From Deltaproteobacteria bacterium (GTDB lineage Bacteria > Myxococcota_A > Polyangia > HGW-17 > JAJRWW01), in the NCBI GenBank assembly GCA_029938605.1, contig JAOZUO010000004.1, positions 23,048-87,047 on the forward strand: a DNA stretch of 64,000 nt. Reading direction: 5' to 3'. A program made the position numbers and the translations under genes. Below, piece after piece: positions 14,357 through 48,837 of the stretch (its first letter is position 1; every line of letters starts with the position of its first letter). Below the pieces are notes generated by a model. It saw only the letters and a program-made list of their open reading frames with translations, was not told where the DNA came from and did not search any database.

Positions 14357-14887
14357 ATGGAGAATGAGAAACCCAAGCTGGTGCTGGTCGTCGACGACGA
14401 GCCCGACGTGCGCATGTTCATCGAGGCGGCCCTCGAGGACGCGGGCTTTGAGGTGGTCACGGCGGGCAACGGTCACGAGGCCTACAACCGCGTCAAGGAG
14501 CGGGCGCCGGATTTCATTACGCTGGATCTGGTCATGCCCAAGCAGTCGGGCGCGCTGTTTTATCTGAAGCTGTGCAACAACAAGACCTGGTGTGACATCC
14601 CGGTGATGATCATCTCGGCCCACGCTCACGACGAGTTGGGCGAAGACGACTTTCGGCAGCTCATGAAGGGGCAGGGCGCGCCCCGCCCGACGCACTTCAT
14701 GGAGAAGCCGGTGCGTCCAGACGAGCTCGTGCGAGTCGTGTGCGAAACCCTCGGGTTGGATCCGAGTGGTGCTGTCGCCGACGACGCCACCACCGACGCC
14801 CGGGATGAGGTGTTTTCCAAGCTTAAGGGCGCCGACTTGAAGACCCTAAAGAGGATCCGGTCGGTGCTCGACAAGGAGGAGGGCTGA
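14357..14887 (+). CDS. Stand-alone CheY-like receiver (REC) protein
   Basis: KLVLVVDDEPDVRMFIEAALEDAGFEVVTAGNGHEAYNRVKERAPDFITLDLVMPKQSG...IPVMIISAH. The acidic pocket and phospho-acceptor Asp are present, and there is no output domain. A strong RBS (GAAGGAGA) lies 8 nt upstream. It is a paralogue of the REC genes at 45311 and 48457. Confidence 0.8.
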   Translation: MENEKPKLVLVVDDEPDVRMFIEAALEDAGFEVVTAGNGHEAYNRVKERAPDFITLDLVMPKQSGALFYLKLCNNKTWCDIPVMIISAHAHDELGEDDFRQLMKGQGAPRPTHFMEKPVRPDELVRVVCETLGLDPSGAVADDATTDARDEVFSKLKGADLKTLKRIRSVLDKEEG

Positions 14888-14915
14888 GCCTGGCGGCCAG
14901 AGCCCAGACGACCCT

Positions 14916-16448
14916 ATGGCACCTGACGAGCTTAGAACCTGGATCAGCGAGCAGCTGTTCGATGTCGCCCCCATCGCCATCGCCACCATCGATCGTGACT
15001 TCAACGTCGTGCAGGCCAACGCGGCCTTTGAGGCGAAGTTCGGCGAGTGGCAGGGGCGCAAGTGCTACCAGGTCTACAAGGACCGGGACGCGCTGTGCCC
15101 GCGGTGCATGGCGTCACGGTCCTTCGAGGATGGGCAGAGCCGCGTCACCCCCGAGGTGGGCGTGGACGAGCACGGATCGATCACCCACTACATCAAGCAC
15201 ACCGTGCCCATCGTGCGGGAGTCCGGGGAGATCCCGTATCTGGTGGAGATGTCCATCGACATCACCGAGTCGCTGCGACTCGAAGATGAGCTGCACATCG
15301 CCCACGACTTTCTGAAGACGCTCATCGCCACCTCTGCCGACGCCATCGTGGGCGTCAACGCGGACCAGGAGGTGCGGGTGGTGAACCCTGCGGCGCGAAA
15401 GCTGTTCAAGATCGCCGACACCGAGACCCTCACCGGGGATCAGCTGGTGGAGATCCTGCCCCGGGGCCTGTTCGACGACGTCTTCTCCTGCGACCGCAGC
15501 CTGCTTCTGCCCGAGACCACCGTGCGCGCCACCGACGGGGAGGAGATCCCCGTGCGGCTGGCCGGGGCGTGCATGGAGTCGGGCGGCAAGCTGCTCGGGG
15601 GCGCCATCTCCATCACCGACCACCGGGAGCTGCGAGATCTGCAGGCCGAGAAGCTGGAGGCCGAGCGGTTGGCGGCGGTGGGGCAGACCGTGGCGGGCCT
15701 GGCCCACGGGGTCAAGAACCTGCTGACGGGCCTGGAGGGGGGCATGTACCTCATGTCCACCGGCCTCAAAAAGGGCAACCAGAAGCGGGTAGATAACGGC
15801 TGGGACATGCTCAACCGGAACATCGTCCGCATCTCCCGGTTCGTGCGCGACTTCTTGAGCTTCTCCAAGGGCCGGACCATCACCGTGGAGCCGGCAGACC
15901 CCGTGGCCGTGGCCCGGGAGGTGGTGGGCCTCTACGTGGCCCGGGCCGAAGAGGCCGGCGTGAAGCTCACCTGGAGCGCCAAAGGAGACATCGCCCCGGC
16001 CAACCTCGACTTCGAAGGCTTGCATGACTGCCTCACCAACCTGGTGGGCAACGCCATGGATGCCTGCCAGATGAGCGAGCACGAATCCGATCCCGAGTCC
16101 GAGCTCGAGCCCGATCCCGAGTCCGAGGGTGGTCAGGCAGAGGCGGGCTCCACCGTGCACGTCTGCGTGTCCGACGAAGACGGCGTGCTGCGCTACTCGG
16201 TGACCGACAACGGCGTGGGCATGGACTACGAGCTTAAGCAGAAGGTCTTCACCACGTTCTTCACCACCAAGGGTCTCGGCGGCACCGGCCTGGGCCTGCT
16301 CACCACCCGCAAGATCATCCAGGAGCACGGCGGCCGCATCGAGCTGGAGTCCACCCCCGGCAAAGGCTCCACCTTCACCATCCTCCTCCCCCGCGACCGC
16401 CTCCCCGCCCGCACCACCAAGAGCGACGACCCCGACCAGGGCGCGTAA
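14916..16448 (+). CDS. Sensor histidine kinase with two PAS domains (first PAS carries a C-x11-CPRC cysteine motif)
   Basis: PAS (IAIATIDRDFNVVQANAAFEAKFGEWQGRKCYQVYKDRDALCPRCMASRSF), a second PAS, a HisKA H-box (LAAVGQTVAGLAHGVKNLL) and HATPase_c (TDNGVGMD...KGLGGTGLGLLTTRKIIQEHGGRIELESTPGKGSTFTI). An acidic insert has a DPESELEPDPESE DNA repeat. Confidence 0.85.
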   Translation: MAPDELRTWISEQLFDVAPIAIATIDRDFNVVQANAAFEAKFGEWQGRKCYQVYKDRDALCPRCMASRSFEDGQSRVTPEVGVDEHGSITHYIKHTVPIVRESGEIPYLVEMSIDITESLRLEDELHIAHDFLKTLIATSADAIVGVNADQEVRVVNPAARKLFKIADTETLTGDQLVEILPRGLFDDVFSCDRSLLLPETTVRATDGEEIPVRLAGACMESGGKLLGGAISITDHRELRDLQAEKLEAERLAAVGQTVAGLAHGVKNLLTGLEGGMYLMSTGLKKGNQKRVDNGWDMLNRNIVRISRFVRDFLSFSKGRTITVEPADPVAVAREVVGLYVARAEEAGVKLTWSAKGDIAPANLDFEGLHDCLTNLVGNAMDACQMSEHESDPESELEPDPESEGGQAEAGSTVHVCVSDEDGVLRYSVTDNGVGMDYELKQKVFTTFFTTKGLGGTGLGLLTTRKIIQEHGGRIELESTPGKGSTFTILLPRDRLPARTTKSDDPDQGA

Positions 16449-16567
16449 TCACCCGCTGCCCTTCGTCCTCGTCCTTGTCCGGTATCCGTCCCACCGGTCC
16501 GGTATCCGGACGCGCACGCCCCGAGGTCCGATCCGGGTACATAGGTAACAGATTTCTCCGGAGACAT

Positions 16568-16717
16568 GGACGCCCACCGCTCTTCCCAGTGGTCGAGGTA
16601 GGCTTGCGCCCCTTCGCGGCTCTTGAAGCGCATGTCCTTGAGCGGCGACCCTTTGGCGTGGCCGACACCTCGCTCCACTTTGCCCTTGCGATCCGGATGG
16701 CGCACCCTGGCTGGCAA
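16568..16717 (-). pseudogene. DDE transposase (IS21 IstA-like / rve-core) C-terminal fragment
   Basis: The first 50 aa of ORF 16226..16717 read MPARVRHPDRKGKVERGVGHAKGSPLKDMRFKSREGAQAYLDHWEERWA. This matches the HP-x-TKGKVER...F.S..ELN..L..W motif after the catalytic Glu of IS21/IS481-type transposases. Homology is lost after that and there is no upstream catalytic core, so this is a remnant. Confidence 0.5.
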
Positions 16718-16822
16718 AGCGACCGCGCCATGTAAGATTATGTTAACCTTCCCACTACCTAGACACCCACTGTGGTACAGTGTAAGCGCTTTGCGTCACT
16801 GGTCCGCCTAGCCCTGAGATTG

Positions 16823-17356
16823 ATGATGTTCGAGATTTCCACCACCCTCGTCGTTGTAATATCGGCCCTGACGCTCGCGTTGGGCCTTGCCGGCGCGCTC
16901 TACTTCCTTCGGGATCAATTCGGCCTGTTGTGGTGGGTGGTGCGGTCCAAGGTGGTTGCCGAAGTCGATGTCGAACCGGTCGCCCCCCACCGATTTGCGC
17001 TGCGCCACCTGCTGCAAGGCAGCCGCCTGCATCGAGTCTGTCTCAAGCTACACGTATCGGGTCCGCACGGTTCGGTGGGCTTGGCCTGCAAGTACAAGGT
17101 GTCCATCGCGGGACAGGTGGTGACGGAGGAGGTCGTCGGCCACGGCCACTTCCCTCCCAAGCCCTTCGACCGGCGCATCACCCTGAGCCTCTCCAGCGTC
17201 GAGACCAAGGGTCTCGACCGTCACACCCAGAAATGCACCATAGTGTTGACCGATGTCGCGTCCTGCGCACCGGACACGGAGATCGTCGTCGCCGGAGAGA
17301 TCCGGTTGTCTGCCGGGGCCGAAGCGCAGGAGCTGACCGTATTGCTGCGCGCCTGA
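16823..17356 (+). CDS. Hypothetical membrane-anchored protein (N-terminal TM helix + beta-rich domain) in a low-GC accessory patch
   Basis: ORF 16772..17356; internal start MMFEISTTLVVVISALTLALGLAGALYFL. No recognisable family. GC is lower than in flanking genes. Confidence 0.3.
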   Translation: MMFEISTTLVVVISALTLALGLAGALYFLRDQFGLLWWVVRSKVVAEVDVEPVAPHRFALRHLLQGSRLHRVCLKLHVSGPHGSVGLACKYKVSIAGQVVTEEVVGHGHFPPKPFDRRITLSLSSVETKGLDRHTQKCTIVLTDVASCAPDTEIVVAGEIRLSAGAEAQELTVLLRA

Positions 17357-17924
17357 AAACGAACGCGAACGATGTGTGGGGCAGATACATCTCCTCTGAC
17401 CCACGCCGATCCGGGTGAGTGTGAGCACGTTGTTTGATGGAAATGGTCTTGGCGCGGCAGGTCGCGACGATGCCGAGCAGGGTCGCGGCCCGATGGGCAC
17501 CTTCGGTGCTTCCTGTAAAGAGGCTATTGAGCCTGACCTTCGCTTGTTCTGGCTACTTTGGTCATCGGCACAACGGAGGTGCGTGTTTGAGGATTCGAAT
17601 CATCGCTTGGGGGCAGCCTGGAGGAGAAACCGACGCCCTCGACCAGAGCGACCCGCTCGACGAGACTTTGCGTGTTTTGTCCGCTTGCACTCGTGAGGTG
17701 GTAATTTCCACGGACCTCCCATATTGCTAGAAAGGCCCCAGCAGACGTCTACACCGCATATATTGACCCCTCAGCACTCATACCCGATACGTAAGCATGT
17801 GGCCAAAAGTCAGCATGATGTTCTTTAGGCACCGGTCATTTTTACTATAGATCACCTGCCCAGCAGTCATCTGTAGCAAAAATGACATCGCACCTTGCAA
17901 CCGGGCGGAGGTGCGCGGTGGTTG

Positions 17925-18746
17925 CTATTCGGCGATGAAATCATCCAGAGTCAGCACCACGATGTCGGGCTGAGACTCGACCTGCCTGGTCACCCCACCT
18001 GCCGCTACGAGAACGAGTTCCAACGTGCTGCGCTCCCGGTTGGGGTACAGCTGGGCCTTCTCGCGGAGCTGGTGCACCGCGTCCATTCCAGTCCGTTTGC
18101 GAGACCATTTGCACTCGACCAGCGTCGTGACTCCGTCGGTCCTACCGAGCACGAGATCAATCTGGACTCCGCGCTTTCGCTGGGTTTTCCGGTGCCAGTA
18201 GGAGCCGACCTCCTCCAGCGCATCTTCGGCGTCCAGTTGTCTGGCGATCAGGTCGGCATGCTGGTCCACGAAACGCTCGAAGGCAGCCCCCAGGAACCGG
18301 TCCCAGTCTTCCCGACCGATCAGGTCGAAGGGAGACGTGCGCCGTCGCCGATGGATCTTACGTAGGTTGGGTGCAACGAGCTTGAAATAGAAACGCAGGT
18401 AGCTGTCGTCGAGGCGATATCGAATGGTTTTCGAGCGCGGTCCTGCGCCGATGGGGGTGTGACGAGAGACAAGGTCGAGCAGCAGCATCCGCTCGAGATA
18501 GTAAGCGATCAATCCGGTCGCTATCTCCGTCCGCCTGCTCAGCTCGGCCATCGAGAGCGCTTCGCGGGCAAGTTCCCCCAGGATCTGGAAGTACCTCTCC
18601 GTCTCTTTGAGCTGCTCGCTCAACACGAATCTGACTTCGTCCACCAGAAATCCCCCGGCCGAGAATGCCTGTTCGGCAAGGACCCGTCGTACGGGCTTGG
18701 GGCCGGCAAATAGCTCCACGTAGGCGGGCACTCCGCCCACAGCCAA
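17925..18746 (-). pseudogene. 5'-truncated gene of the DUF234/archaeal-ATPase family (winged-helix + PD-(D/E)XK-like C-terminal nuclease domain), lacking the N-terminal P-loop ATPase half
   Basis: The 273-aa ORF starts in the middle of the family architecture. It has the DUF234-like segment LIAYYLERMLLLDLVSR...TIRYRLDDSYLRFYFKLV and the C-terminal restriction-endonuclease-like segment VGSYWHRKTQRKRGVQIDLVLGRTDGVTTLVECKWSRK. No Walker A/B region is found upstream in any frame. Confidence 0.5.
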
Positions 18747-18868
18747 CAGTGACGGTTATGGAAAGCTCTCCATAAGAGGTAGCACGGCGTGTTCGCAAAC
18801 CGCTCCCGACATCGCCCACTGCTTCCAAGGCCGTCGCGGAAGCGAACCCGAAGCTGGTAGCCAGGTTC

Positions 18869-19141
18869 ATGAACTGGGTCCAGGCCCGGTTCCACGACGA
18901 CAACCGACGAAAAGGTGAGGTCCGGGCCGAGGACAATCAGGCACCAGGAGGAATCGACACGATGCTCGAATCAGCGATCAAGGAGCGAGCAGAGAAAGAG
19001 CGCCGGGAAGGCCGCCAGGAAGGCCGGATGGAGGAGAAGCGCGAGGTAGCTCGTAAGGCGCTGGCCAAGGGCATGAGCCCTGCTGACGTGGCCGAGTTGA
19101 CCGCGCTGCCGTTGGAGGAGGTCCAAAGGCTTACGCACTGA
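18869..19141 (+). pseudogene. C-terminal fragment of an Rpn/YhgA-like (PD-(D/E)XK, transposase_31 family) recombination-promoting nuclease
   Basis: ...ESAIKERAEKERREGRQEGRMEEKREVARKALAKGMSPADVAELTALPLEEVQRLTH matches the characteristic tail of this family (EGRQEG repeats + ...GLS.EEI..LTGLS.EEV..L). The N-terminal ~250-aa nuclease domain is absent. Confidence 0.4.
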
Positions 19142-19489
19142 GTTGTGTAAACCAGAGATGGACAGGTTGAGAATCTGACGAATCTCCAGAAAGATAGTTG
19201 GTGTAACTGCTCCTTTGGGGAGCAAATCAAGAACTCTGCCTAACGGCGGGGTTTTTGGTTTACACCACGACTTCCTGAGCAACACCGGCCTGCAGGACGT
19301 CGAGTACCTGGTCGGCGACCCGCCTCCGGGGCCCAACGGCGTCGCCACGGTGTTTTACAACAAGTCCTGCTACCATCCGATCTATGCACCCAGGTAAAGG
19401 ACGTCCAGTTGCGCTGTCACACCACCCTGGACGGCCTGCATCGCATCAAGCTCTGCCGTTGAGCCGATTGCGGGGTGGAGTGAAGAAGC

Positions 19490-20671: not shown

Positions 20672-20695
20672 GGCGTGCGCGTAGGGGGTTGATGA

Positions 20696-21946: not shown

Positions 21947-22193
21947 GGCGGTATTGTAGCGAAGGAGCCCGGCCTTGTGAAGTGATTGGGCTCAAACCTG
22001 GGTCACGATAAACATCCGATGTTAAACATTCCATTGACTACGCTAAGCTGCTTCGCGGATACTCGGGTCGAGTTCATCCGAATCACTACACAAACCCGCA
22101 TCGTTTCGAGAAAGCGATCCGAGCCATGGCAGGCCCCCTCAACGGCAAGACTGAAGACGATGGGGAGAGCTGCCTCGAGCGTGCCCAGCCGAG

Positions 22194-23738: not shown

Positions 23739-23755
23739 ACGGCGGCAAGGATCCA

Positions 23756-26593: not shown

Positions 26594-26603
26594 TCCGGCA
26601 GCG

Positions 26604-35569: not shown

Positions 35570-38500
35570 CTATTTTTCACCGAACTTGAAGGTGGCCTTG
35601 TCGATGATGGTCGATAGAGTTCCCGGCTGGGCGTGCCGTTCGTTCGCCAGCGGATACCGGTCGGGCGCCAGACGATTGATCTCCCGCTCACAGAGGCGGG
35701 ACCACTCGTTGAAGCACCGCAGCCTCTTGGACTGGGCCAGGCAGGTCTTGTACCCATCCTGTGCCTTGGCGAGCACTGGATTGTGCGCCGTCCCCCTCAA
35801 CATATTGTAGGCGTCCCGGACCGCGCAGTCCTTGAGGAACGTTGGCTCCGATGCGTTGAGAAGCAGCTCGGCGTAGTTGTGGTAGATCATGGCGGAGCGG
35901 GCCACTGAGGCGATGGACCAGTGCGTGTCACCACGCCTGCCGTCGCCGGTGTCCACCCGGGTGGTGGTGATGACCGACATGAACTTCTTCACCAATTTCA
36001 CGCCCGAAACCAACTTCGACTTTTGCCACCTGGTGAAGCGCCTGATGGACCGCTTTGCTTTCAGAGGATTTTTCGGGTCGAAATCCAGCTTTCGGGGCAG
36101 GCTCCATTTGAGGTAGTTTTCGAACCCGAGCTCCGCGCTCATGAACGCCGCCTGGGCGGCGTAGTGTCGGGCGTTGTAGATCTTTGCCATCCGATCCGTA
36201 TCGTTCTTCGGGATCTTGAGCAGGCCGCGGCCCTTTGCCCAGATCCGCAGGGCCCGGGCGAAGTATCGCTTCGCCATGCGCACGTTGGTGCTTTCGCGCT
36301 TAAGAAAAATGATCTTCTTCTGCTTCTTATTTTTACCTTTGCGCCGGTAGTACCGGATCCGGATGCACTGGCCGTGGGTCTGAGTCACCTTGCAGCTCCG
36401 TCGCCACCAGATGGCTCCCAACTTGGACAGGGCTTCTATGTGCTTGTCCACCTCGCCCGCCGATCCATAGGTCCGGGCGTAGCGGTCCAGGTTGACCAGG
36501 ACACTGTCCTCGTCACCCTGGTTTTCGTACATCTTGACCACCAGCCAGAAAGCCTTGGCTGACAGTTTCTTGTACTTGCCACCCTTGCGACTGTAGCGCT
36601 TGATGAACGCCGCGGCGTTCTTCATCATTTTGAGCTCTTGGCCGAGACCACCGCGGAGCACGATGCCCCACAGGAGGCTTTCGGGCGCTTCCTTGCGTTT
36701 GGAGTACTTGTCGAAGAACCGCTCGTACCACTTGGCGGCCTTCTTGAAGAACGCCAGGCTGCGGAAGTTCCCCGCCAGGTAGTACATGGACAGGGCGCGG
36801 TGTTTGGACTTTTTGAACCGCTGCACGATGGTTCGACGCATCTTCAGCGCTGGCCCCAGCATGCCGGCCGCCTCGTAGCAGGATCCAGCGTTCCAGAGGA
36901 AGGTGTCGAGGTTGCTCGCGGAGGTATAGCGCGTGGCCATCTCCTCGTACGCAGCGCCGCACTCGGCGAACTTCCCGGCTTTGCTGAGCTGCGTGGCGTT
37001 CGCCCACATGGCCTTGAGCTTGTAGTCCTGCATCTTGGCGGCGAAATCCTCGTCCTCCATCAATTTTGGGGTTGCGATGAACTTGTCCACGTACCGACGG
37101 ACGTCCTTGTAGCGCTTCTTCACGCTGAGCATTCCGATGATCCGGAAGGCCGCCGTACGCGCCGCCTTGGGCATGTCATTTACGTGGTTTACGGCCACCT
37201 TGAGGAACAGCGGGAGCGCCTTGTCGAAGTGGTTGTGTTTCCAGTATATGTGGCCGGTGTTAAATACGATGGTCGGCAGGTACTTGGACCTCGGTATGTA
37301 CTTGCTGTAGGTCTTGAAGGCCTTGAGCATGGCCACGTGGGCCGCCGGGATCTCCTGTTTCGGGTACTGGTAGGTCCACTCGACGCAGCGCCGACGCTTC
37401 TTCTTGGCGCAGACCATTTTACTCTTGGCCCCGCTGCCCATGGAGCGGATCTCTTTGCTGGTGATCTTGTTGGCCTTCATCCAACAACGCACCGCGGCCA
37501 GGGCCGCATCATTGCGCTTTTTGATGTAGATTTTCTGGGCCATGGTGCCCGGCTTTGGCATCTTGACGATGGCCCCGAAGACGTGGGCCAGCTTCACCCA
37601 CTCGTGCAACGGTACGTTCGGATTCCCCTTGTTGAAGAACCAGAGCAGGTCCGCGTACTGGTAGCGCATCAGGTAGATGACCTTGGATTTGGGATAGGTC
37701 TTGATGTACTCCTCGTACAGGGCGCGGGTCTTGCTGAGGGTGTCCATGTTCTTCGGACCTTCAGCATGCCACTGGGTGGCCAGCATTTTCATGGTGTTCT
37801 CGGCGGAGCTCCGGCACTGAGTGACCTGCGGGGCCTTTCGGCCGAACTGCTTGATCAGACTGAGGGTGATCTTACCCAGCTGTTTCACAGCGCTCACCTG
37901 AGCGGCTTTGTTTCCCGTGTTGATGGTAGCGTCCACCATGGTGGTGGCCCACTGACAGCGGTTCTTGTCACGGGGCCAGCGCCGCCGGGCTTCGCCGAAG
38001 ATCTTGATGCAGTCGATGTTTTTACCTTGGGCGTAGTACATGGTGCCCAGCAGCACGAACATCGTCTTCGAAACGTGCGGACGCCCCCCGGACACTTTGT
38101 GGAAGAAGTTGTACGCCTGGTCGGGCCGGCCAATGTGGGTGAAGGCGCGGACCACGTCCTTGCGCGCCGCCTGGATCAGGTTCTTGCCACCGTGTTTGCC
38201 GCCCGAGACCTGGACGAACTTGGACAGGGCCAACCGATACTTATTGAGGTTGAGGTAACACCAACCGATCTTGTAGTTGGCGTAGGGTGCCAGCGGCGAG
38301 CTCTTGTACCGGGCTACTTTCTGGAAGACGGCGATGGCCTTCACGATGCGGCGGCTGTTGAATAAGAACTCCCCTTTGGCCAACAGGGCGTCGGGGATGA
38401 ATCGGGAGCGCGGATGCTCCTTCACCAGACGACTGAACATGGCCATCATGACCTGCGAGTACTGCTTGGCCTTGGCGTGTTTGCCGCGCTTCTTCTCCTG

Positions 38501-39115
38501 CTCGGCGAGGCTCTTGGTCATGTCGCCGACGGTGAAGATCACTTCGTCCATACGGCGGTAACTACCGTACTTCTTGTTGGTGGTGATGCGCACGTATTTG
38601 GTCACGGACTTGCGCAGCCAATCGTTGGCCCGGGCGAAGTACAGCTTCTGCCGCTTGCGCAACTTGTCGGCCAGACCTTTGTTGCCCGCCTCCCGGGCCC
38701 CGAAGATCCTGGGGTGTAGCGATATCCCGGCCTTCCACAGGTTCAGGCACATGGCGTTGTAGTGCTCAGCCACGCGGAACAGGTAGTCCGGGTACTTGCG
38801 GTCGCCGGGATCCGCCAGCTTCAGGGTCGACTCGAGCAGCCGGATCCCCCGGCGGATGAACCCTGCCCTTCTCGAAGCCAACCTCTGAAGCCTGGCCTGG
38901 GAATTGCGGATGACCGCCGCCTTGATCTGCTTGGGGGCGGTCATCTTCAGGGCAGCGGCCACAGACAGCCTCTTGTGCTTGCCCATCTTTTTGATTTTTG
39001 ACCCTTTGCGCGTGCCCAACTGGGCTTGTGCGGTCTGGGCGCTCAGCAGTCCCAACGTGGCGGCCACCAGGATGGAAAACGCAGTACGCGATTTCATCAT
39101 AGAGGTTTCCCTCAC
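35570..39115 (-). CDS. Large secreted, very basic (Lys/Arg-rich) TPR-repeat protein, 1181 aa
   Basis: Signal peptide MMKSRTAFSILVAATLGLLSAQTAQAQ. Multiple TPR-like helical hairpins (for example ALLAKGEFLFNSRRIVKAIAVFQKVARYKSSPLAPYANYKIGWCYLNLNKYRLALSKF). Long antisense ORFs on the opposite strand are rejected. Confidence 0.7.
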   Translation of the reverse strand: MRETSMMKSRTAFSILVAATLGLLSAQTAQAQLGTRKGSKIKKMGKHKRLSVAAALKMTAPKQIKAAVIRNSQARLQRLASRRAGFIRRGIRLLESTLKLADPGDRKYPDYLFRVAEHYNAMCLNLWKAGISLHPRIFGAREAGNKGLADKLRKRQKLYFARANDWLRKSVTKYVRITTNKKYGSYRRMDEVIFTVGDMTKSLAEQEKKRGKHAKAKQYSQVMMAMFSRLVKEHPRSRFIPDALLAKGEFLFNSRRIVKAIAVFQKVARYKSSPLAPYANYKIGWCYLNLNKYRLALSKFVQVSGGKHGGKNLIQAARKDVVRAFTHIGRPDQAYNFFHKVSGGRPHVSKTMFVLLGTMYYAQGKNIDCIKIFGEARRRWPRDKNRCQWATTMVDATINTGNKAAQVSAVKQLGKITLSLIKQFGRKAPQVTQCRSSAENTMKMLATQWHAEGPKNMDTLSKTRALYEEYIKTYPKSKVIYLMRYQYADLLWFFNKGNPNVPLHEWVKLAHVFGAIVKMPKPGTMAQKIYIKKRNDAALAAVRCWMKANKITSKEIRSMGSGAKSKMVCAKKKRRRCVEWTYQYPKQEIPAAHVAMLKAFKTYSKYIPRSKYLPTIVFNTGHIYWKHNHFDKALPLFLKVAVNHVNDMPKAARTAAFRIIGMLSVKKRYKDVRRYVDKFIATPKLMEDEDFAAKMQDYKLKAMWANATQLSKAGKFAECGAAYEEMATRYTSASNLDTFLWNAGSCYEAAGMLGPALKMRRTIVQRFKKSKHRALSMYYLAGNFRSLAFFKKAAKWYERFFDKYSKRKEAPESLLWGIVLRGGLGQELKMMKNAAAFIKRYSRKGGKYKKLSAKAFWLVVKMYENQGDEDSVLVNLDRYARTYGSAGEVDKHIEALSKLGAIWWRRSCKVTQTHGQCIRIRYYRRKGKNKKQKKIIFLKRESTNVRMAKRYFARALRIWAKGRGLLKIPKNDTDRMAKIYNARHYAAQAAFMSAELGFENYLKWSLPRKLDFDPKNPLKAKRSIRRFTRWQKSKLVSGVKLVKKFMSVITTTRVDTGDGRRGDTHWSIASVARSAMIYHNYAELLLNASEPTFLKDCAVRDAYNMLRGTAHNPVLAKAQDGYKTCLAQSKRLRCFNEWSRLCEREINRLAPDRYPLANERHAQPGTLSTIIDKATFKFGEK

Positions 39116-39282
39116 CTCTCCCCGGCGGCTATTAATGATTTCTGCAGGCAGTCTGTCCGGAGGTCGACCTCCTCCGAACGGCTCAACTTCCAGTATACAC
39201 CGTTTGAGCGCCCACCTACGCGGTTTCTACGCGATTTCTGCGCGGTCCCCGAGTTCTCGGCAGCCTGACGGTGTGGAGTTGT

Positions 39283-39789
39283 TTACTTCTTGAGGCTTTT
39301 GCAGGCCTTGACTGCGTTGGTCTGCTGAGCCGGGCGGTGGGCGGTGGTGGTGCACGTGTAGGCTTTGCCACCAATCGTGCGGTGGACCCGGACAAAATAG
39401 TTTGTGCCCATGCCGCCCTTGTTCTCGAAGGTGAACACCCATCCATCACTCAGCTTTTCAGTTTTGATGTTCTTGGGGGTGAACATCTCGGCTTTCTTTT
39501 TTGCCTCCTGGACGGTTTTGGGATCAGAAGCACCGGCCGGGGCGATGGAGACCACCAAGCCAGGGGCCTGGATCAACACGCCCGTGCCCATTATGCCCTT
39601 GCTGATGTTGGCCCCCGCGGGCAGATCGATCTTGAGGCCATCGACCTGCTTCAGGACCGTGGCTTTGGGCTCGGCTGATTTTTTTGCCTTGGGCTCGGCC
39701 GATTTGCTTTTTGAAGAGTCCCCGGATGAGGGTTTGCCACAGGCCACCAGGCCCACAATGGCGACTAGAAACAGTGCAGTGATTTTCAT
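39283..39789 (-). CDS. Small lipoprotein, hypothetical
   Basis: MKITALFLVAIVGLVACGK lipobox, then a Lys/Ser-rich linker and a ~100-aa beta-rich domain. Local GC is slightly reduced. Confidence 0.55.
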   Translation of the reverse strand: MKITALFLVAIVGLVACGKPSSGDSSKSKSAEPKAKKSAEPKATVLKQVDGLKIDLPAGANISKGIMGTGVLIQAPGLVVSIAPAGASDPKTVQEAKKKAEMFTPKNIKTEKLSDGWVFTFENKGGMGTNYFVRVHRTIGGKAYTCTTTAHRPAQQTNAVKACKSLKK

Positions 39790-39802
39790 GATTGGTTCTC
39801 CT

Positions 39803-40495
39803 TTATAGGTTGGCGATCTTTTTGGTTCGGATCACGGTCAGGTCGTTGCAGGGTTTGCCCTTGGCGCGCTTGCGGGCGGTGCGGGTGTCGCAGTGGCCCT
39901 TGGCGTTGGCGGGGTAGCTCACTTTGATCTTGCGTACAGTGATGGTCACCCCGGTCCCTTCTGATACCACCGTGCTGGTGGCTGTGTGACCGTTTTTACA
40001 CACCGACTTTCTGAAAAACCCCGTGAAGTACTCGGCGCCTGTGAGCTTCCCTTTGGTGATCTCGCGGAAGTTGAAGTGGAAGGTCCCCCCCTCCCACTTC
40101 TGGACGTGCTTTCGACACTCGGCCACGGTCCCGCAGGAATAGGCCATCAGCGCCTTGCGAACCATCAGCTCCCCCATCACGAGCACCACGAAGCCGTCGC
40201 GCCCCTCGTCCGACAACACGGCCCCCTCGGCGGTGCAGACCTTCGGGTTGTGCGTCGTCTTCGTGATCTTGTAGATGCCGAGCAGCGGCGTCGCCTTGGC
40301 GATGACCGCCTTTTCCCGCTCAGCGGCGGTGTCCTTGTCCGACTTGTTGCCTTTGCAAGCGCTCAGGGCTAAGGTGCCCAGACCGCCTGAGATCCCGACG
40401 TAGAAAACAGGGACGGTGGGGATCAACACCGCGACCAGGGCGGCGCGAAAACGGTTGCGTAAACAGGGACCATACTGACGATTGGTTTTGCTCAT
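39803..40495 (-). CDS. Lipoprotein, hypothetical (Cys-containing beta-rich domain)
   Basis: Internal start MSKTNRQYGPCLRNRFRAALVAVLIPTVPVFYVGISGGLGTLALSACKGN. No family recognised. Confidence 0.5.
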   Translation of the reverse strand: MSKTNRQYGPCLRNRFRAALVAVLIPTVPVFYVGISGGLGTLALSACKGNKSDKDTAAEREKAVIAKATPLLGIYKITKTTHNPKVCTAEGAVLSDEGRDGFVVLVMGELMVRKALMAYSCGTVAECRKHVQKWEGGTFHFNFREITKGKLTGAEYFTGFFRKSVCKNGHTATSTVVSEGTGVTITVRKIKVSYPANAKGHCDTRTARKRAKGKPCNDLTVIRTKKIANL

Positions 40496-40530
40496 TGAAG
40501 GAGTATCGGGGATGAGGGCAGAGGGGTCAA

Positions 40531-40569: not shown

Positions 40570-40609
40570 CACCCGAATTTTCGACTCGGGATCGCCAAGC
40601 TACAAGCTA

Positions 40610-42034: not shown

Positions 42035-42046
42035 GCCACAACTCCT

Positions 42047-42466
42047 TTACTCACTGTCCCCGTCCCCGTCTTTCCAGTACGTCGCTCGCTCGGCAATCAC
42101 CCACCGCACGCCACCGCGCGGGTCGGGAACATCCCCCCGCCACCGCGGGATCACGTGCAGATGACAATGCATCACCGTTTGCCCCGCCGCCTCGCCATCG
42201 TTCACGCCGATATTGAAACCATCCGGAGGTGGATCGAGCTCGATGGCCAGCGAACCACGCACCTGTTCGGCCAGCGTCCATAGGTCGGCCAACTCTTGGG
42301 CGGTACAGTCAGCGAGCCGACCCACATGCCTTCGAGGGACAACCAACGTGTGACCTTCAGCGACCGGGTAGGCGTCGCGGACGGCGACGGCCAGTGCAGT
42401 CGACTGCAGCTCACGCTTCGGTGAGAGAGCACAAAAGGGGCAAGAGTTGGCTTCTGGGGACTGCAT
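42047..42466 (-). CDS. HIT-family (histidine triad) nucleotide hydrolase
   Basis: Begins at the internal ATG (42466) of the longer 42047..43012 ORF, whose upstream part overlaps the opposite-strand lipoprotein gene. MQSPEANSCPFCAL...VAEGHTLVVPRRHV...AAGQTVMHCHLHVIPR carries the H-x-H-x-H-xx histidine triad. Confidence 0.75.
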   Translation of the reverse strand: MQSPEANSCPFCALSPKRELQSTALAVAVRDAYPVAEGHTLVVPRRHVGRLADCTAQELADLWTLAEQVRGSLAIELDPPPDGFNIGVNDGEAAGQTVMHCHLHVIPRWRGDVPDPRGGVRWVIAERATYWKDGDGDSE

Positions 42467-42556
42467 GGGTTGGGAGTATATCTTATTGGACCTCGGTCGT
42501 TGGTCATTGTCCCGCTGGTTATTAGGATTTATACTCGGGCTGGTGATTACAGGAAA

Positions 42557-44188: not shown

Positions 44189-44192
44189 ACAA

Positions 44193-45209
44193 TCAAGACA
44201 GTTGCCCGACGAGCCGCAGCACGGCGGTGGCCACGTCCGGAGTCGGGAGCGGTGGCGGGGTTCGCTGGCCGGCGTTGAGCTCCCCCAGGAAGCGACGTAG
44301 CCGCTGGGGAGTGAAGGAGCCGAAGGTGCACCCGTCGCCCAGGCCGGCGCCACGAAGCATCTCCACGTTGAAGCGTTGCTCGTCGTCGTCTGCGTCGTAC
44401 AGGGCGAACTGGCTCACGCCCAAAAAGACGCACTCGGACATGAGCTGGCTCCCCGCAGAGGAGACCACCGCCGGGGCTGTGCGCAGTCCTTCGACAAAGT
44501 CGGCGCGATTCAGTGATCGGACGTTGATGGCGGCACGGGGCGGGTGGATGTGGCGGGTGAACAGGGTCACCGGGTGGCCGTGGTCTGCCAGCGCATCGAG
44601 CACTGCGTGGGCGTTGTTGTCCCGGAAGTAGGCCACCAGGGGGGCGTTTGGGTCGGGGTGAGGCGGTGAGGCCAGCAGGTCGGGCGGCAGGGCGGGTGAC
44701 GCTACGGTGGTGTGGACGGGATCCAGGGGTCGAAGCCTGACGAAGGACACCGCCACATGGTGGGTCGCGCCGAGGGACGACGCGCGGACCTTGAGCCCCT
44801 CTCGCCACCAGGCGCCGCGGTTCACCCCGGGCGGTCGGTGGCACGTGCCGGCCACGAGCCCGTGCCCCACCACCACGGTCGGGATATCGTGCAGGCGTGC
44901 AGCGATCAGGCCCGGGAGATCCGAGTCCGAGACCACGACGCTGGGGCGGTGGACCCGTTGGGCGGCGAGTGCCTCTCCCACTCGCCAGGCCACCAGAGGC
45001 GGCGTTCGTAGGCTGAATCGAGAGGGTATGCTTTGCACCCGACGACACTCGGTGACTTCGCGCACCAGGAGGGTGGCGTCCTCCCCGGCGAAGGCCAGCA
45101 CCCGGTAGCCCGCCTCGTTCAGAGCGCGGATTACGGCCACCGATCGCGTGGCGTGTTCCAGGCCGCGGCCGTGGACGTAATAGTGCACCAGTTTGTTGTT
45201 GGTGGGCAT
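44193..45209 (-). CDS. UDP-sugar-dependent glycosyltransferase, GT-B fold (MurG/PseG/MGT-like family 28/1)
   Basis: N-terminal HYYVHGRGLEHATRSVAVIRAL...G motif typical of MGT/GT28 N-domains, with a C-terminal nucleotide-sugar binding half. The exact family is not resolved. Confidence 0.6.
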   Translation of the reverse strand: MPTNNKLVHYYVHGRGLEHATRSVAVIRALNEAGYRVLAFAGEDATLLVREVTECRRVQSIPSRFSLRTPPLVAWRVGEALAAQRVHRPSVVVSDSDLPGLIAARLHDIPTVVVGHGLVAGTCHRPPGVNRGAWWREGLKVRASSLGATHHVAVSFVRLRPLDPVHTTVASPALPPDLLASPPHPDPNAPLVAYFRDNNAHAVLDALADHGHPVTLFTRHIHPPRAAINVRSLNRADFVEGLRTAPAVVSSAGSQLMSECVFLGVSQFALYDADDDEQRFNVEMLRGAGLGDGCTFGSFTPQRLRRFLGELNAGQRTPPPLPTPDVATAVLRLVGQLS

Positions 45210-45310
45210 AGGGTTTGATCAATGAAGCGCCCGCGATGGGGCGCACCTCCGGTCCGGGAGTATCTCCCGATCCTCTAGCGCCGGTCAAGGGCACCCCAGA
45301 CCGGTAGGGA

Positions 45311-45829
45311 TTACTCGGTCTTGAGCCTGAGGTTGATGGCGTGCAGGATCTCTGTATCCCGGTTGCGGGCGCGGCTTGTGATGGATCTTTGGTGGGTGGC
45401 CAGACCGATGTCCTCGTCGTTGATGTCTACTTGGAGGAGCTCGGCGATGAGGCGCACTAGCTCGGGGGGGGTGATGGGTTTTTCCAACACCCGTGCGGGG
45501 CGATGGTCCCGGGGGAAGGCGAGCAGTTGCCGCAGGGCCTCCTCGCCGAGCTCGTCCCGCAGGTGGGCGGTGATCAGGATGACCGGAATCCTCTCCCAGG
45601 GGCGGTTTTCGCGGAGCTTACGCAAAAAGGCCAGGCCGTTCATGCGCGGCATAACCATGTCGAGGGTGATCAAGTCCGGCGTGAGCGTGGCGAGCTGATC
45701 CAGGGCGTACTGACCGTCCTCGGCGGTGTGGACCACGAATCCGGCGTCTTCGGCGCAGGCCTCGAGGAACATGCGCACGTCCGGCTCGTCCTCCACTACC
45801 AGGATCGTTTTGTCATTCGCGTGTACCAT
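45311..45829 (-). CDS. Stand-alone CheY-like receiver (REC) protein, paralogue of the REC at 14357
   Basis: TILVVEDEPDVRMFLEACAEDAGFVVHTAEDGQYALDQLATLTPDLITLDMVMPRMNGLAFLRKL...IPVILITAH...DELGEEALRQL...EKPITPPELVRLI. It shares the distinctive DEPDVRMF(I/L)EA...GF.V.TA..G...PD(F/L)ITLD.VMP...IPV..I(S/T)AH..DELGE..(F/L)RQL...EKP..P.ELVR signature with the 14357 gene. 8-nt gap to the upstream HdrD-like gene. Confidence 0.8.
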   Translation of the reverse strand: MVHANDKTILVVEDEPDVRMFLEACAEDAGFVVHTAEDGQYALDQLATLTPDLITLDMVMPRMNGLAFLRKLRENRPWERIPVILITAHLRDELGEEALRQLLAFPRDHRPARVLEKPITPPELVRLIAELLQVDINDEDIGLATHQRSITSRARNRDTEILHAINLRLKTE

Positions 45830-45837
45830 GGGAGATT

Positions 45838-47448
45838 CTAGAACTCATCCTCCCACTTGATGAATCCCTCTTTGACCTCCGTCATGGCGTTGACGATGAG
45901 CTCCACGAGGCCCGAGTAGATCAAGCTCTCCTTCTCCTTCATCTCGTAGCGGTCGAAGATGTCGCGGATCTGGCCCTTACAGTTGGAGCAGGGAGCGCAG
46001 ACGTACTTGGGGGTCTCGGGCCCGCGGCAGTCACCGAAGGCGTCGAGGATCTGGGTTAGCTTTTTGCGGCCCGCTACCTTGTGACGCCAGTCGGGGATGT
46101 TGTTGCGGGTCATGATGGCGAAGCCGCTGCCCCCGCCGCAGCAGTAGTTGTGGACCCCATGGGGCACCATCTCCCGGAACTGCGGGCAGAGCTTCTTCAC
46201 GATGTCCCGTTGGGGCTTGATGATGCCCATGAGCCGGGTGACATTGCAGGGGTCGTGGATGGTCACGGGGAAGTCGTTGCGGCTCGGATCAAAGTCGATC
46301 TTGCCCGACATGACGATCTCCCTGAGCAGCGGGAAACAGCTCTCCCGGGGGGTCAAGAGCTCTTGGGGCAGCACGCGGTCGGCGATGACCGTCAGGGCCT
46401 TGTGGGCGTGGCCACACTCGCCCAGGACGATCTTGTCCACGTTGAGCTTCTTGGCTGCGTTGGCGTGGAGCAGAGCCGTGCGGGCGTACTGCACGTCGTC
46501 GTAGAACACGCCGTAGTTGATGGAGTCGTAGGCCGCCAGGTCGCTCGACAGGGTCCAGGAGCGGATGATGCCGGCCTTTTTCGCCGCCTCGAGGATGATG
46601 CCGAAGGCCCCCACGTTGTCGGGCCAGGCGAGGATCTCCCCGGCGTTGTGGATGAGCAGGATCTCGGCGCCCTCCACGTCCCAGGGGGTCTCGTACTCGT
46701 AGCCGGTTATTTCGGAGATGTCCTCGTCGATGAATTCCATGTTGTCCTTGACCACCAGGGAGTTCATGTTTGTGGAGGAGCCGGATTTGAGCTGCAGCAT
46801 GGATCCGTTTTTGTGCAGCTCGGGGGTGGTGATGCCCATCTCCTGGCTGAAGATCTTGCGGATCTCCCGGGCCACGAGGCCGTTGTCCGCCCCAATGGGA
46901 CAGGTCTGGGCGCAGCGTCGGCAGAGGTTGCAGCGATAGGCGAGCTCCCCCAGCCGTGCCACGGCCTGCCAGGTCAGGTCGATCTTGCCGTTGCGCCAGT
47001 CCGACCACATCTCGCCCTTGATGTGCTTTTTATAGATGCGGCGGAACACCTCCGTCCGGTAGGTGGGCCGGTACATCTCGTTTTCGCCGCTGGCTTCGTA
47101 GATGTGGCAGGCCTGCGAGCAGGTGTTGCACTTGGCGCAGTGGTCCATGGTGGTGACCAACTGCGCCAGGAAGGTCCAGTTGTTCTCGGCGGTGAAGAGC
47201 TTCTCCATGCCTGAGAGGAACTTCTCCACGAAAGCCTTCTGTTCGGCGGGAGTCTTGGGCTTGGGGATGGGTAGAATCGCCGTGTCATCCAGGATGCAGG
47301 CGAAATCTTCCCTGGTGGCCTCGGAGATCTCGCCCCACGCGGGCTCCTCGACGTCGATGGGCAGGGGCATGAGGTCGGCGTTGTCCACGTGGGCGAGCTG
47401 CGGCGTATCCTTGGAGATGTCAGTGATGCGGACGAATTTGTTACTCAT
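45838..47448 (-). CDS. HdrD-like iron-sulfur CCG-domain oxidoreductase (second copy; DsrK/HmeD/HmcF family)
   Basis: CAKCNTCSQACH and CNLCRRCAQTCPIG ferredoxin motifs. CCG-domain motifs are HDPCNVTRL, NYCCGGGSG and CAPCSNCKGQ. It has ~90 extra N-terminal residues relative to the first copy. Confidence 0.85.
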   Translation of the reverse strand: MSNKFVRITDISKDTPQLAHVDNADLMPLPIDVEEPAWGEISEATREDFACILDDTAILPIPKPKTPAEQKAFVEKFLSGMEKLFTAENNWTFLAQLVTTMDHCAKCNTCSQACHIYEASGENEMYRPTYRTEVFRRIYKKHIKGEMWSDWRNGKIDLTWQAVARLGELAYRCNLCRRCAQTCPIGADNGLVAREIRKIFSQEMGITTPELHKNGSMLQLKSGSSTNMNSLVVKDNMEFIDEDISEITGYEYETPWDVEGAEILLIHNAGEILAWPDNVGAFGIILEAAKKAGIIRSWTLSSDLAAYDSINYGVFYDDVQYARTALLHANAAKKLNVDKIVLGECGHAHKALTVIADRVLPQELLTPRESCFPLLREIVMSGKIDFDPSRNDFPVTIHDPCNVTRLMGIIKPQRDIVKKLCPQFREMVPHGVHNYCCGGGSGFAIMTRNNIPDWRHKVAGRKKLTQILDAFGDCRGPETPKYVCAPCSNCKGQIRDIFDRYEMKEKESLIYSGLVELIVNAMTEVKEGFIKWEDEF

Positions 47449-47453
47449 GGTCT

Positions 47454-48401
47454 CTACTCCGGTTCACTGCCGTCGGGCCGCATGGGGTTGTAGCTCGCCA
47501 CCTCCACCCAGTTCTTTTTGCCGTCGGCGTGGATATGCTCGGCGGCCCAGGAGACGGGCTGGCCCAGTGCCTCGCCGATGCGCCTGTTGGTCTCGGGGTT
47601 GTCGATGTTCGGCTCGTCTCCCCAGCGGATGTCGTGCCACAGGAAGTACTTCATGAAAAAGTGCGACATGTGCGTGAGCGGGATGTAGGCGAGCAACACG
47701 AAGATGAGGATCATCTGCGTGGCGAAGAGGGAGGACTCGAACTTGATGAACTTGAAGGTTAAGAGGCTGTAGACGAAACCTCGCATGGTGTGGAACTCGG
47801 GGTCCACCGTACGCCAGGTGTACAGGGCCACGCTGACGGTCACCAGAAAGAGCGCCAGGTTGAAGTAGTGGCCCACCGACGAGTAGTTGCGTAGCTCGAT
47901 GTTGGTGAGGCGTCGCAGCCCGAGGCCCAGGGCGCCCACCGCGCACAGCACAAAGCCCACGGGACCGACGATGCTCGTCACAGCGATCATCAGCCCAGCT
48001 GTGCCACCGGCCCCCGGGAACATGGAGATCCCGGCGGCGTGCAGGATCGCACCGAAGATCAGGAGACCGGCGAAACCCGCCAGGACGTAGAGCCCGAAGT
48101 GGAAGGGGAAGCTCACCCACCACAGGGATTTGTTGTGCTCCCAGACGCCTTTGAGCAGGAGGATCTCGGGGATCATCACCTTCATCTCCCCGAACAGGGA
48201 GACCTCCCGCTTCTTCTTCCACCAGTCCACCTCCTCGAGATAGCCGCCACCCCACTCGGCGCGCTTGGCCTCGTGGGCCACGGGGTACAGCTCCCAGCGT
48301 ACGTGCTGGGGCAGCCTTTTGTAGGCCATGATCCGGGCAAACACGGCGCCTAGAAATACGACTATGGCCGTGTAGGCGACCAGGTAGGCAACGATTGACA
48401 T
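47454..48401 (-). CDS. NarI-type cytochrome b membrane subunit (second copy; DsrM/HmeC family)
   Basis: 315 aa with six TM helices and His residues in helices (FPFHFGLYVL, AILHAAG, VGHYFNLALF, THMSHFFMKYFLWHDI). A 5-nt gap separates it from the HdrD-like gene. Confidence 0.8.
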   Translation of the reverse strand: MSIVAYLVAYTAIVVFLGAVFARIMAYKRLPQHVRWELYPVAHEAKRAEWGGGYLEEVDWWKKKREVSLFGEMKVMIPEILLLKGVWEHNKSLWWVSFPFHFGLYVLAGFAGLLIFGAILHAAGISMFPGAGGTAGLMIAVTSIVGPVGFVLCAVGALGLGLRRLTNIELRNYSSVGHYFNLALFLVTVSVALYTWRTVDPEFHTMRGFVYSLLTFKFIKFESSLFATQMILIFVLLAYIPLTHMSHFFMKYFLWHDIRWGDEPNIDNPETNRRIGEALGQPVSWAAEHIHADGKKNWVEVASYNPMRPDGSEPE

Positions 48402-48456
48402 GGTGAATCTCCTCTCTTCGTCAGCGCTGGGGGCAATTGCGGTTCCTATAGGGCCC

Positions 48457-48837
48457 TTAGGAGAGGAGGTCCGCGATCATCTTCAGCAGCTTGTCCTGAT
48501 CGATGGGCTTGGCCATGAACCCCTCGGGATTGGGCACCTGTTTTCTCGATTTGAGAAAGTGCTCCATGGGCTCTCCCACGGCGGTGATGATCACCACCGG
48601 GATCTTCGCCAGGTCGGGGTCGTCCTTGAGCTTCCGATAGGACTTCACCCCGGACTGCTCCGGCATGGTGATGTCGAGGGTGATCAGGTCCGGCGACGCT
48701 TCCTGGGCCAGGTTCAGACCTTCGATGCCATTTGCGGCCTCGAGGGTGGTGTAGCCGTGATCGGACAGAAGCGACTTGAGAAATGTTCGCACGTCCGGCT
48801 CATCGTCGACGATCAGAATGGTCTTGTTCTCGCTCAT
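48457..48837 (-). CDS. Stand-alone CheY-like receiver (REC) protein, third paralogue
   Basis: TILIVDDEPDVRTFLKSLLSDHGYTTLEAANGIEGLNLAQEASPDLITLDITMPEQSG...IPVVIITAVGEP...MAKPIDQDKLLKMIADL. Same subfamily signature as the other two REC genes. Confidence 0.8.
   Translation of the reverse strand: MSENKTILIVDDEPDVRTFLKSLLSDHGYTTLEAANGIEGLNLAQEASPDLITLDITMPEQSGVKSYRKLKDDPDLAKIPVVIITAVGEPMEHFLKSRKQVPNPEGFMAKPIDQDKLLKMIADLLS

Follow-up and report, generated by a model that had tools for sequence, protein, structure and literature searches.

A stretch of 64,000 nucleotides from contig JAOZUO010000004.1 of a Deltaproteobacteria bacterium (the window, by which the whole analysed stretch is meant; G+C about 64%) encodes three separate response-regulator receivers, REC1, REC2 and REC3, in two gene clusters that also encode NarI-like membrane cytochromes b and HdrD-like Fe-S/CCG proteins. 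The receivers belong to a clade that is specific for HdrD/NarI modules and that comes with its own histidine kinase. Loci on public contigs that were fetched for comparison carry L-numbers (L001 etc.). Cluster A, of the Tmc/Hmc type, lies on the forward strand and is composed as follows.

6929..8215, forward strand: TmcD-family Trp-rich subunit (NF045725, 505.6 bits, exceeding the cut-off of 440)
8212..8868, forward strand: NarI-like cytochrome b of the TmcC family (NF045723, 268.6 bits, exceeding the cut-off of 240; Pfam Nitrate_red_gam, 22.7 bits, marginally below the cut-off of 22.9)
8881..10209, forward strand: HdrD-like Fe-S/CCG protein, nearest to TmcB (NF045724, 669 bits against a cut-off of 735; HmcF model, 382 bits; Pfam Fer4_8 and CCG)
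10206..11834, forward strand: 16-haem periplasmic cytochrome c, HmcA-like (16 CXXCH motifs; Pfam Cytochrom_CIII in four stretches)
11831..12919, forward strand: Tat-signal 4Fe-4S protein, HmcB-like (Pfam Fer4_11; start codon and RRGF motif)
12916..14151, forward strand: NrfD-family membrane subunit, HmcC-like (Pfam NrfD, 63.4 bits)
14174..14296, forward strand: hydrophobic open reading frame (ORF) of 40 amino acids, HmcD-like (2 of 40 residues differ from an L001 ORF with a precomputed PF28260 (DVU_0533) match; no match in the Pfam scan of the window ORF itself)
14357..14887, forward strand: REC1, long-type receiver of 176 amino acids (Pfam Response_reg, 70.4 bits)
14916..16448, forward strand: PAS histidine kinase with a Cys-rich PAS domain (Pfam PAS_4 and HATPase_c)

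Cluster B lies on the reverse strand and contains a second module between two receivers.

45311..45829, reverse strand: REC2, long-type receiver of 172 amino acids (Pfam Response_reg, 84.1 bits; long-type clade)
45838..47448, reverse strand: HdrD-like Fe-S/CCG protein, DsrK-like (Pfam Fer4_8 and CCG; NF045796 DsrK, 291.5 bits against a cut-off of 400)
47454..48401, reverse strand: NarI-like membrane cytochrome b (Pfam Nitrate_red_gam, 31 bits, exceeding the cut-off of 22.9)
48457..48837, reverse strand: REC3, short-type receiver of 126 amino acids (Pfam Response_reg, 81.5 bits; short-type clade, shared with receivers fused to HdrD)
48853..49107, reverse strand: conserved ORF of 84 amino acids (invariant GCG...LRD.AYK.R motif)

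The original prediction placed all three receivers immediately beside HdrD-like or NarI-like genes. This is correct for REC2, which lies 8 nucleotides 3' of the HdrD-like gene, and for REC3, which lies 55 nucleotides 5' of the NarI-like gene, but not for REC1, which is separated from the NarI/HdrD pair of cluster A by four genes, namely those for the 16-haem cytochrome, the HmcB-like and HmcC-like proteins and the 40-residue HmcD-like ORF. The ATG of REC1 at 14357 is preceded, at a distance of 9 nucleotides, by AGGAG, and the histidine kinase gene begins 28 nucleotides past the end of REC1. The intergenic gaps of the cluster B cassette are 5-55 nucleotides, and neither a sigma70-like promoter nor a terminator was found between the cassette genes (minus strand, 45311-49107). 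HdrD and receiver are not fused in the window: the HdrD-like gene ends at 45838 and REC2 begins at 45829, and REC3 is located upstream of NarI. Since the DsrM score (19.9 bits, cut-off 300), like the DsrK score listed above, falls under the equivalog cut-off, the cluster B module can be called DsrMK-like only.

All three receivers pass the Pfam Response_reg (PF00072) cut-off of 30.2 bits. In pairwise BLASTP comparisons, REC1 and REC2 are 50% identical over 135 amino acids (134 bits), REC1 and REC3 41% and REC2 and REC3 38%. A six-frame phmmer scan of the 64 kb revealed one further receiver domain only, at the C-terminus of a hybrid kinase (51351-53276), which scores 15-25 bits against REC1-3, compared with 75-135 bits for REC1-3 among themselves. 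The motifs from which the original prediction started are present in the sequences, DEPDVR.F, PD(F/L)ITLD..MP and IPV.I..A in all three proteins and DELGE..RQL...EKP..P.ELVR in REC1 and REC2. Also found in all three are the acidic pocket (VDDE/VEDE), the phospho-Asp in ITLD, the I(S/T)A motif, F or Y at the third position before the conserved Lys, and (E/A)KP; in the family alignments, the DD/E pocket, the phospho-Asp, the T/S, the aromatic residue at that position and the Lys are conserved across the long, short and HdrD-fused forms.

The long type is distinguished by an extended alpha4, TAHA(H/R)DELG..DF, followed by P..YLEKPV, a linker and a C-terminal helical hairpin, and the short type by P.PEG(F/Y)..KP. 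REC1 and REC2, each with about 45 additional amino acids at the C-terminus, are therefore single-domain proteins that exceed the minimal CheY size; the AlphaFold2 (AF2) model of REC1 consists of a receiver fold and two further helices, 144-158 and 161-175 (mean predicted local distance difference test score, pLDDT, 86). REC1 has 1524 homologs at E<=1e-10; of the best 120 listed, the majority are full-length proteins of 165-185 amino acids; the 1063 homologs of REC3 at E<=1e-12 are mainly 125-135 amino acids long. The beta1-alpha1 region is the usual kinase-docking surface of receivers, and the alpha4-beta5 region is the usual output face. Given these textbook surfaces, the location of the family-specific signature DEPDV..F (DEPDVR.F in REC1-3) on beta1-alpha1 and the remodelled alpha4-beta5 region fit a dedicated kinase and a dedicated target.

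A neighbour-joining tree covers 135 receiver domains of the window and of 88 fetched loci; the smallest clade in it that contains REC1-3 has 47 receivers, 45 of them from loci chosen for family-level receiver similarity and 2 from control loci. The clade splits into a long group and a group of short and fused receivers, with the receiver of the hybrid kinase outside. REC1-3 are united to the exclusion of the latter in 180 of 200 bootstrap replicates, and 156 of the 200 return the long group exactly; for the receivers of the window and the fetched loci, this agrees with the expectation of a clade exclusive of other receivers. The proposed description as three paralogous stand-alone receivers has to be amended: the proteins are single-domain and form one clade, but they are not recent paralogs. 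They represent two old sister types, the long (REC1, REC2) and the short (REC3), and the long ones carry the extension.

The association with redox modules recurs far beyond the window. A close relative, L001, with 81-89% nucleotide identity, has the same layout and carries both clusters, and HdrD/NarI genes lie next to the receiver in all six homolog loci that were picked for long contigs alone. Even homologs of 40-57% identity, from Zixibacteria, Ignavibacteria, Thermodesulfobacteriota, Omnitrophota and Acidobacteriota, adjoin HdrD/NarI genes. A scan of species-representative genomes with the long-type alignment yielded about 15 family members together with about 65 generic receiver loci, which served as a built-in control; neighbours were called by tblastn with the window proteins, and linkage was defined as an HdrD-like gene within 10 kb of the receiver. 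By this definition, 18 of 23 clade loci have an HdrD-like gene, compared with 1 of 63 non-clade loci (Fisher p = 4e-13), and the clade loci that lack one are mainly short or cut contigs; when only genome-scan loci of 10 kb or more are counted, the figures are 11/13 and 0/48. A metagenome replicate with the short-type alignment found HdrD in 7 of the 8 family loci that span 10 kb or more, against 1 of 56 generic loci. The linkage foreseen for related genomes is therefore found in L001, in distant homologs of several phyla and in the metagenome sample. Two layouts prevail: an activator gene, then HdrD-NarI-FeS-NrfD(cytochrome c), then short receiver-kinase-long receiver; and small ORF-short receiver-NarI-HdrD-long receiver with a kinase and an activator. 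The receivers of the window are more alike than the modules they accompany, since identity is only 28% between the two HdrD-like proteins and the two NarI-like proteins can barely be aligned.

It is barely credible that REC1-3 are ordinary CheY-like paralogs, incidentally similar and incidentally adjacent to redox genes. The receiver is the commonest signalling domain and often occurs in dozens of copies in high-GC genomes of this size, but two independent collections both show the linkage, in strong contrast to generic receivers, and the match to a family-specific curated model and the HdrD-receiver fusions, both described below, also speak against chance.

The signalling partnership that had been proposed from the window is supported by the clade and by the linkage, and it extends to a conserved kinase and to sigma54 activators, neither of which was part of the original prediction. 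Orthologs of the kinase encoded at 14916-16448 adjoin the long receiver in nearly every family locus, and the kinase scores 150-430 bits in family loci compared with about 50-100 bits in generic ones. Each of its PAS domains carries the motif G..CY.VYK.R...C..C, that is, C-x10/11-C-x2-C (C-x10-C-x2-C in the window protein), and nearly all of the orthologs aligned from other loci retain this cysteine triad and the H-box AHG(V/I)KN. Judged by these sequences, the protein is likely to be the cognate kinase of the receivers. The other regulatory features of the window are as follows.

4835..6256, reverse strand: EBP_A, PAS-sigma54 activator without a receiver domain (Pfam PAS, Sigma54_activat, AAA_lid_14 and HTH_8)
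6376..6391, forward strand: weak candidate -24/-12 element, cGGtccggaatTTGCA (direct sequence reading)
6534..6932, forward strand: HTH_17 (excisionase-type) DNA-binding protein with a Cys-rich C-terminal half (Pfam HTH_17; NCBIfam excise)
49151..49166, reverse strand: candidate sigma54 promoter, TGGCCCGCAGGTTGCA (the sole one-mismatch match in the window)
49424..51172, reverse strand: EBP_B, PAS-sigma54 activator without a receiver domain (Pfam; PAS with C-x8-C-x3-C-x2-C)
51351..53276, reverse strand: hybrid PAS-HisKA-HATPase-REC kinase (Pfam; receiver outside the family)

EBP_A is transcribed divergently from the cluster A genes, and its PAS domain has a C-x8-C-x3-C spacing that is conserved in orthologs; orthologs of EBP_B stand beside the same cassette in L003, L005, L014 and L019, and a PAS-sigma54 activator with cysteine spacing like that of OrpR is usual in family neighbourhoods. 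In the window and in L001, L003 and L005, a TGGC-N8-TTGC element is located 45-60 nucleotides 5' of the small ORF, and like elements precede several Hmc/Tmc-like operons. Matches to the sigma54 consensus are not enriched in the window (23 found, about 30 expected, with at most two mismatches); the site at 49151-49166 is backed by its position and conservation only. No site as good was found upstream of cluster A, where the cGGtccggaatTTGCA element must be regarded as tentative because of three mismatches to TGGCAC-N5-TTGCA. The HTH_17 protein scores 26 bits in Pfam, slightly under the cut-off of 27, and 29.6 bits against the NCBIfam excise domain (cut-off 28.8); its homologs adjoin redox modules in L001, L015, L017 and L023. 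Its C-terminal half contains eight cysteines (C.x4.C...C..C...C...C..C...C), and the protein is possibly a transcription factor of the Fe-S or redox-sensing kind. The hybrid kinase shares only 25% identity with the Cys-PAS kinase across the catalytic half and may or may not be part of the system.

These regulators also provide the setting for a purely transcriptional account, in which the receivers are intermediates or modulators that set the expression of the adjacent redox operons via the PAS-sigma54 activators, the HTH_17/Cys-rich protein or an Rrf2-type factor, and in which receiver-HdrD/NarI adjacency reflects the common encoding of regulators near their targets. Such a circuit is possible, if somewhat improbable. 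It accords with the sigma54 activators and -24/-12 elements at most family loci, with the recurrence of the HTH_17/Cys-rich protein, with an Rrf2 gene beside the fused cassette of L090, and with the rrf1 and rrf2 genes 3' of hmc in D. vulgaris, which are cited as regulators of hmc expression (PMC10924467; PMC13344952). However, activators with PAS input and no receiver do not need a phosphodonor, neither an Hpt protein nor a DNA-binding response regulator was found in the neighbourhoods (window clusters and long-contig homolog loci), and adjacency offers no explanation for a covalent receiver-HdrD fusion in a large and very conserved family.

This fusion family gives independent support to the alternative raised in the original prediction, that the receivers are docking partners. 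In L011, L018, L019, L021, L023, L104 and L110, a single in-frame ORF encodes a TmcB/HmcF-like HdrD protein with a short-type receiver at its C-terminus. All of the best 120 matches to the L019 fusion (120/120) are 560-602 amino acids long, contain Fer4_8/CCG and PF00072, and are 77-100% identical to it; they are labelled Zixibacteria, Acidobacteriota, Planctomycetota, Bacteroidota and others. At 50% identity clustering, the family collapses to 1-2 representatives (query P0241), so the fusions form one tight clade and do not stem from many independent events. The fused receivers are 35-50% identical to REC3 and nested in the short group of the tree, and the existing annotation of the proteins is just "response regulator" or "Fe-S oxidoreductase". 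Fusion ORFs, of about 580 amino acids, were located at the following positions.

L019, 6678-8486: HdrD-receiver fusion ORF
L011, 11945-13726, reverse strand: HdrD-receiver fusion ORF
L023, 9443-11215: HdrD-receiver fusion ORF
L104, 1576-3333: HdrD-receiver fusion ORF
L089, 8001-9758: HdrD-receiver fusion ORF
L090, 8001-9752: HdrD-receiver fusion ORF

The fused cassette has the order membrane protein of about 230 amino acids (cytochrome b), HdrD-receiver, Cys-PAS kinase, short receiver. A Macro-domain gene is often found beside it, directly 5' in L089 (Zixibacteria, 6728-7264) and L090 (Phycisphaerae, 6645-7199), and in L090 the Macro gene is preceded by one for an Rrf2-family regulator (6096-6602), which recalls the rrf1-rrf2 pair beside hmc. 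An apparent fusion of kinase and long receiver in L109 was dismissed as an out-of-frame ORF artefact of high-GC DNA.

The composition of the fused cassette bears on a further alternative, that the module is a sensor and not a target: NarI/HdrD would read the redox state of the quinone pool or of thiols and signal via the receiver to the kinase and then to gene expression, so that the whole cassette would be a redox-sensing signalling device and not a controlled respiratory complex. DivK, which feeds back on its own kinases, offers an analogy. The minimal cassettes, made up of cytochrome b, HdrD-receiver, kinase and receiver alone and lacking periplasmic partners and obvious substrate genes, occur in phyla that do not reduce sulfate (L089, Zixibacteria; L090, Phycisphaerae), and this, the identity of 77-100% of the fused protein across phyla and the Cys-PAS nature of the kinase and activators themselves all fit a sensor. 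Cluster A, on the other hand, encodes a full Tmc/Hmc-type complex with a 16-haem cytochrome that looks like an electron-transfer machine, and receivers normally take phosphate and do not emit signals. We consider this alternative clearly unlikely.

The reading that we prefer, to which the sequences lead us to give an even chance, is that the receivers would be phosphorylatable single-domain response regulators dedicated to NarI/HdrD modules (Tmc/Hmc- and DsrMK-like) and would form a two-component switch in which the short receiver contacts HdrD. The kinase with three conserved PAS cysteines would sense a redox or Fe-S-related signal and phosphorylate the receivers; the short receiver would contact the cytoplasmic HdrD-like subunit directly; and this contact would either tune the electron flow between the quinone pool and the CCG active site or report the state of the subunit to the kinase. 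The long receiver would constitute a second branch, as a phosphate sink or as a link to transcription, and the REC3-NarI-HdrD-REC2 operon would be expressed from a sigma54 promoter via the OrpR-like, receiver-less PAS activators. We infer three of these steps: phosphorylation of the receivers by the Cys-PAS kinase, contact of the free short receiver with the HdrD subunit as the fused one must make it, and an effect of receiver phosphorylation on electron transfer or a report on it. A broader claim can be put forward tentatively, namely that HdrD-type membrane modules are under direct post-translational two-component control, a free or fused receiver docking on the CCG subunit and gating electron flow or making the module a redox-sensing input. 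That such control should cover Tmc, Hmc, the DsrMK-like module and the cytochrome b/HdrD-receiver module of Zixibacteria, Acidobacteriota, Planctomycetota and Bacteroidota is a possibility of the same modest weight.

Several observations weigh against the proposed dedicated switch, in addition to the cited role of rrf1 and rrf2. AF2 models the fused protein with a predicted TM-score (pTM) of 0.62 and a disordered linker of about 17 residues (pLDDT 34), so no fixed interface between receiver and HdrD is predicted. REC3 is 46-50% identical to fused receivers and to free short receivers alike, and a free short receiver is still present in the fused cassettes; the fused receiver may therefore occupy another functional slot. 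The fusion is evidence of functional coupling, not of a particular direction or kind of control. The clade members of L027, L112 and L132 have no HdrD gene nearby, L132 consisting of kinase and long receiver only, and cluster B of the window has no Cys-PAS kinase of its own, only the hybrid kinase of another type.

Several further features of the two clusters deserve mention. The genes at 6929-14296 form a Tmc/Hmc hybrid, in which TmcD, TmcC and the TmcB-type protein are followed by the 16-haem HmcA-like protein and the HmcB-, HmcC- and HmcD-like proteins; the order is unlike that of D. vulgaris hmcABCDEF or tmcABCD, and the layout is identical in L001 and L007. Directly downstream of the kinase (span 16226-18746) lie a fragment that by eye is transposase/integrase-like (16226-16717, reverse strand) and a DUF234/DUF4143 ATPase-type fragment. 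Clusters A and B are about 29 kb apart in the window and about 4 kb apart in the close relative L001, and this much closer spacing suggests an insertion or rearrangement near 16226-18746. Between the clusters, 35570-39115 (reverse strand) encodes a lysine-rich protein of 1181 amino acids with, by eye, the look of a TPR-type lipoprotein, and the G+C content of window positions 36000-40000 is lowered to 0.586-0.588 from about 0.64, with a strongly negative AT skew (-0.22 to -0.23).

The 84-residue ORF at 48853-49107 is called as a gene in an independent assembly, has homologs in the same position in L001, L003, L005, L014, L019 and L095 and no Pfam match. Its fuller motif is GD..R.D.GCG.V(F/Y)G.LRD.AYK.R.LA, with one invariant Cys, and it always opens the receiver-NarI-HdrD-receiver cassette, just past the sigma54-type promoter. 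With one conserved Cys and no conserved His, it was ruled out as a DsrC-like two-Cys substrate and as an Hpt protein. EBP_B and its orthologs (559-582 amino acids; L003, L005, L014, L019) have an additional N-terminal domain of about 140 amino acids before the PAS domain, which has no Pfam match and by eye resembles a degenerate low-molecular-weight phosphatase/ArsC fold.

For the partners and control of HdrD-like subunits (TmcB, HmcF and DsrK paralogs) in anaerobic energy metabolism, a concrete handle is offered by a receiver family whose genes accompany these subunits in many phyla and which in hundreds of sequences is fused to one of them. Phospho-mimic and phospho-null receivers could be used to ask whether electron transfer through the complexes is switched, and the conserved cassette of cytochrome b, HdrD-receiver and kinase is a compact system for such tests. 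The analysis defines two unnamed families of single-domain response regulators, at present annotated just as "response regulator" or "CheY-like", for which genomic context predicts a function. Direct control of HdrD modules by receivers, if true, would represent a new class of receiver output and an unrecognised layer in the control of anaerobic respiration.

Among described families, the closest is DVU0259 (NCBIfam NF045717, DVU0259_DivK), which is the top NCBIfam match of REC1-3 and of six more clade members scanned, an HdrD-fused receiver included, and not of two other receivers scanned (L072, L073). The scores (REC1 84.4, REC2 69.3 and REC3 101.2 bits; 69-121 bits over the clade members scanned) are all below the cut-off of 160 bits, and the window receivers are therefore relatives, not members, of this family. 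DVU0259 is a single-domain receiver of about 117 amino acids, from which the long type differs by the remodelled alpha4 and by the C-terminal hairpin beyond the 117-position model. REC1 shares its cluster with TmcD, TmcC and TmcB-like genes, a likeness to the setting of DVU0259, whose gene in Desulfovibrio vulgaris Hildenborough is located a short distance 5' of tmcABCD (DVU0263-0266). An assignment to CheY failed, as no che genes are found among the scanned cluster neighbours, the 25 families shown for REC1 and for REC2 include no CheY model, and the sole one for REC3, CheY_Halo (59.3 bits), ranks well under DVU0259, PleD and PhoB. An NtrC-type architecture does not apply either, the receivers being separate proteins of 126-176 amino acids and both sigma54 activators having PAS in place of a receiver. 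The closest solved structures are RR468 of Thermotoga maritima and the PhoB receiver (target-normalised TM-score 0.88-0.90, 28-32% identity), the match being limited to the (beta/alpha)5 core of about 126 residues; sequence and fold searches of the PDB returned the generic receiver core only and no solved structure over the long-type C-terminal hairpin. RR468 is not known to be linked to redox modules.

Searches of the literature found no paper on DVU0259, DVU0260 or DVU0258, none pairing HdrD with a receiver domain and none combining HdrD, DsrMK and a response regulator, and hmc and tmc are unmentioned in the papers mapping the D. vulgaris sigma54 regulome and response regulators. Rrf1 (DVU0530), encoded with Rrf2 downstream of D. 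vulgaris hmcABCDEF, resembles REC1 in gene order, in that a receiver gene ends an Hmc-type operon, next to the cluster of the HdrD-like subunit; the window has no Rrf2 gene and carries PAS-sigma54 activators and the Cys-PAS kinase instead. OrpR of D. vulgaris is a sigma54 activator with a [4Fe-4S] PAS redox sensor (cysteines C52/C61/C65) and a reported regulon of the orp operons only (PMC8359166). EBP_A and EBP_B have in common with it the PAS-AAA+-HTH_8 architecture, the lack of a receiver and the C-x8-C-x3-C spacing, cluster binding being putative in both; this likeness belongs to the partner regulators, not to the receivers. Orp-type genes (Nitro_FeMo-Co, CbiA/ParA) neighbour the module in L006-L008. 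Regulators of the CheB/PleD/RpfG type join a receiver and an enzyme-like domain in one chain, as do the HdrD-receiver fusions, in which, however, the receiver is C-terminal and not N-terminal and the partner is an Fe-S/CCG subunit of a membrane complex; in the window the two are encoded by separate genes. Regulator genes beside hmc and tmc are thus already known, whereas the cross-phylum family, its long type and the fusion family appear to be undescribed.

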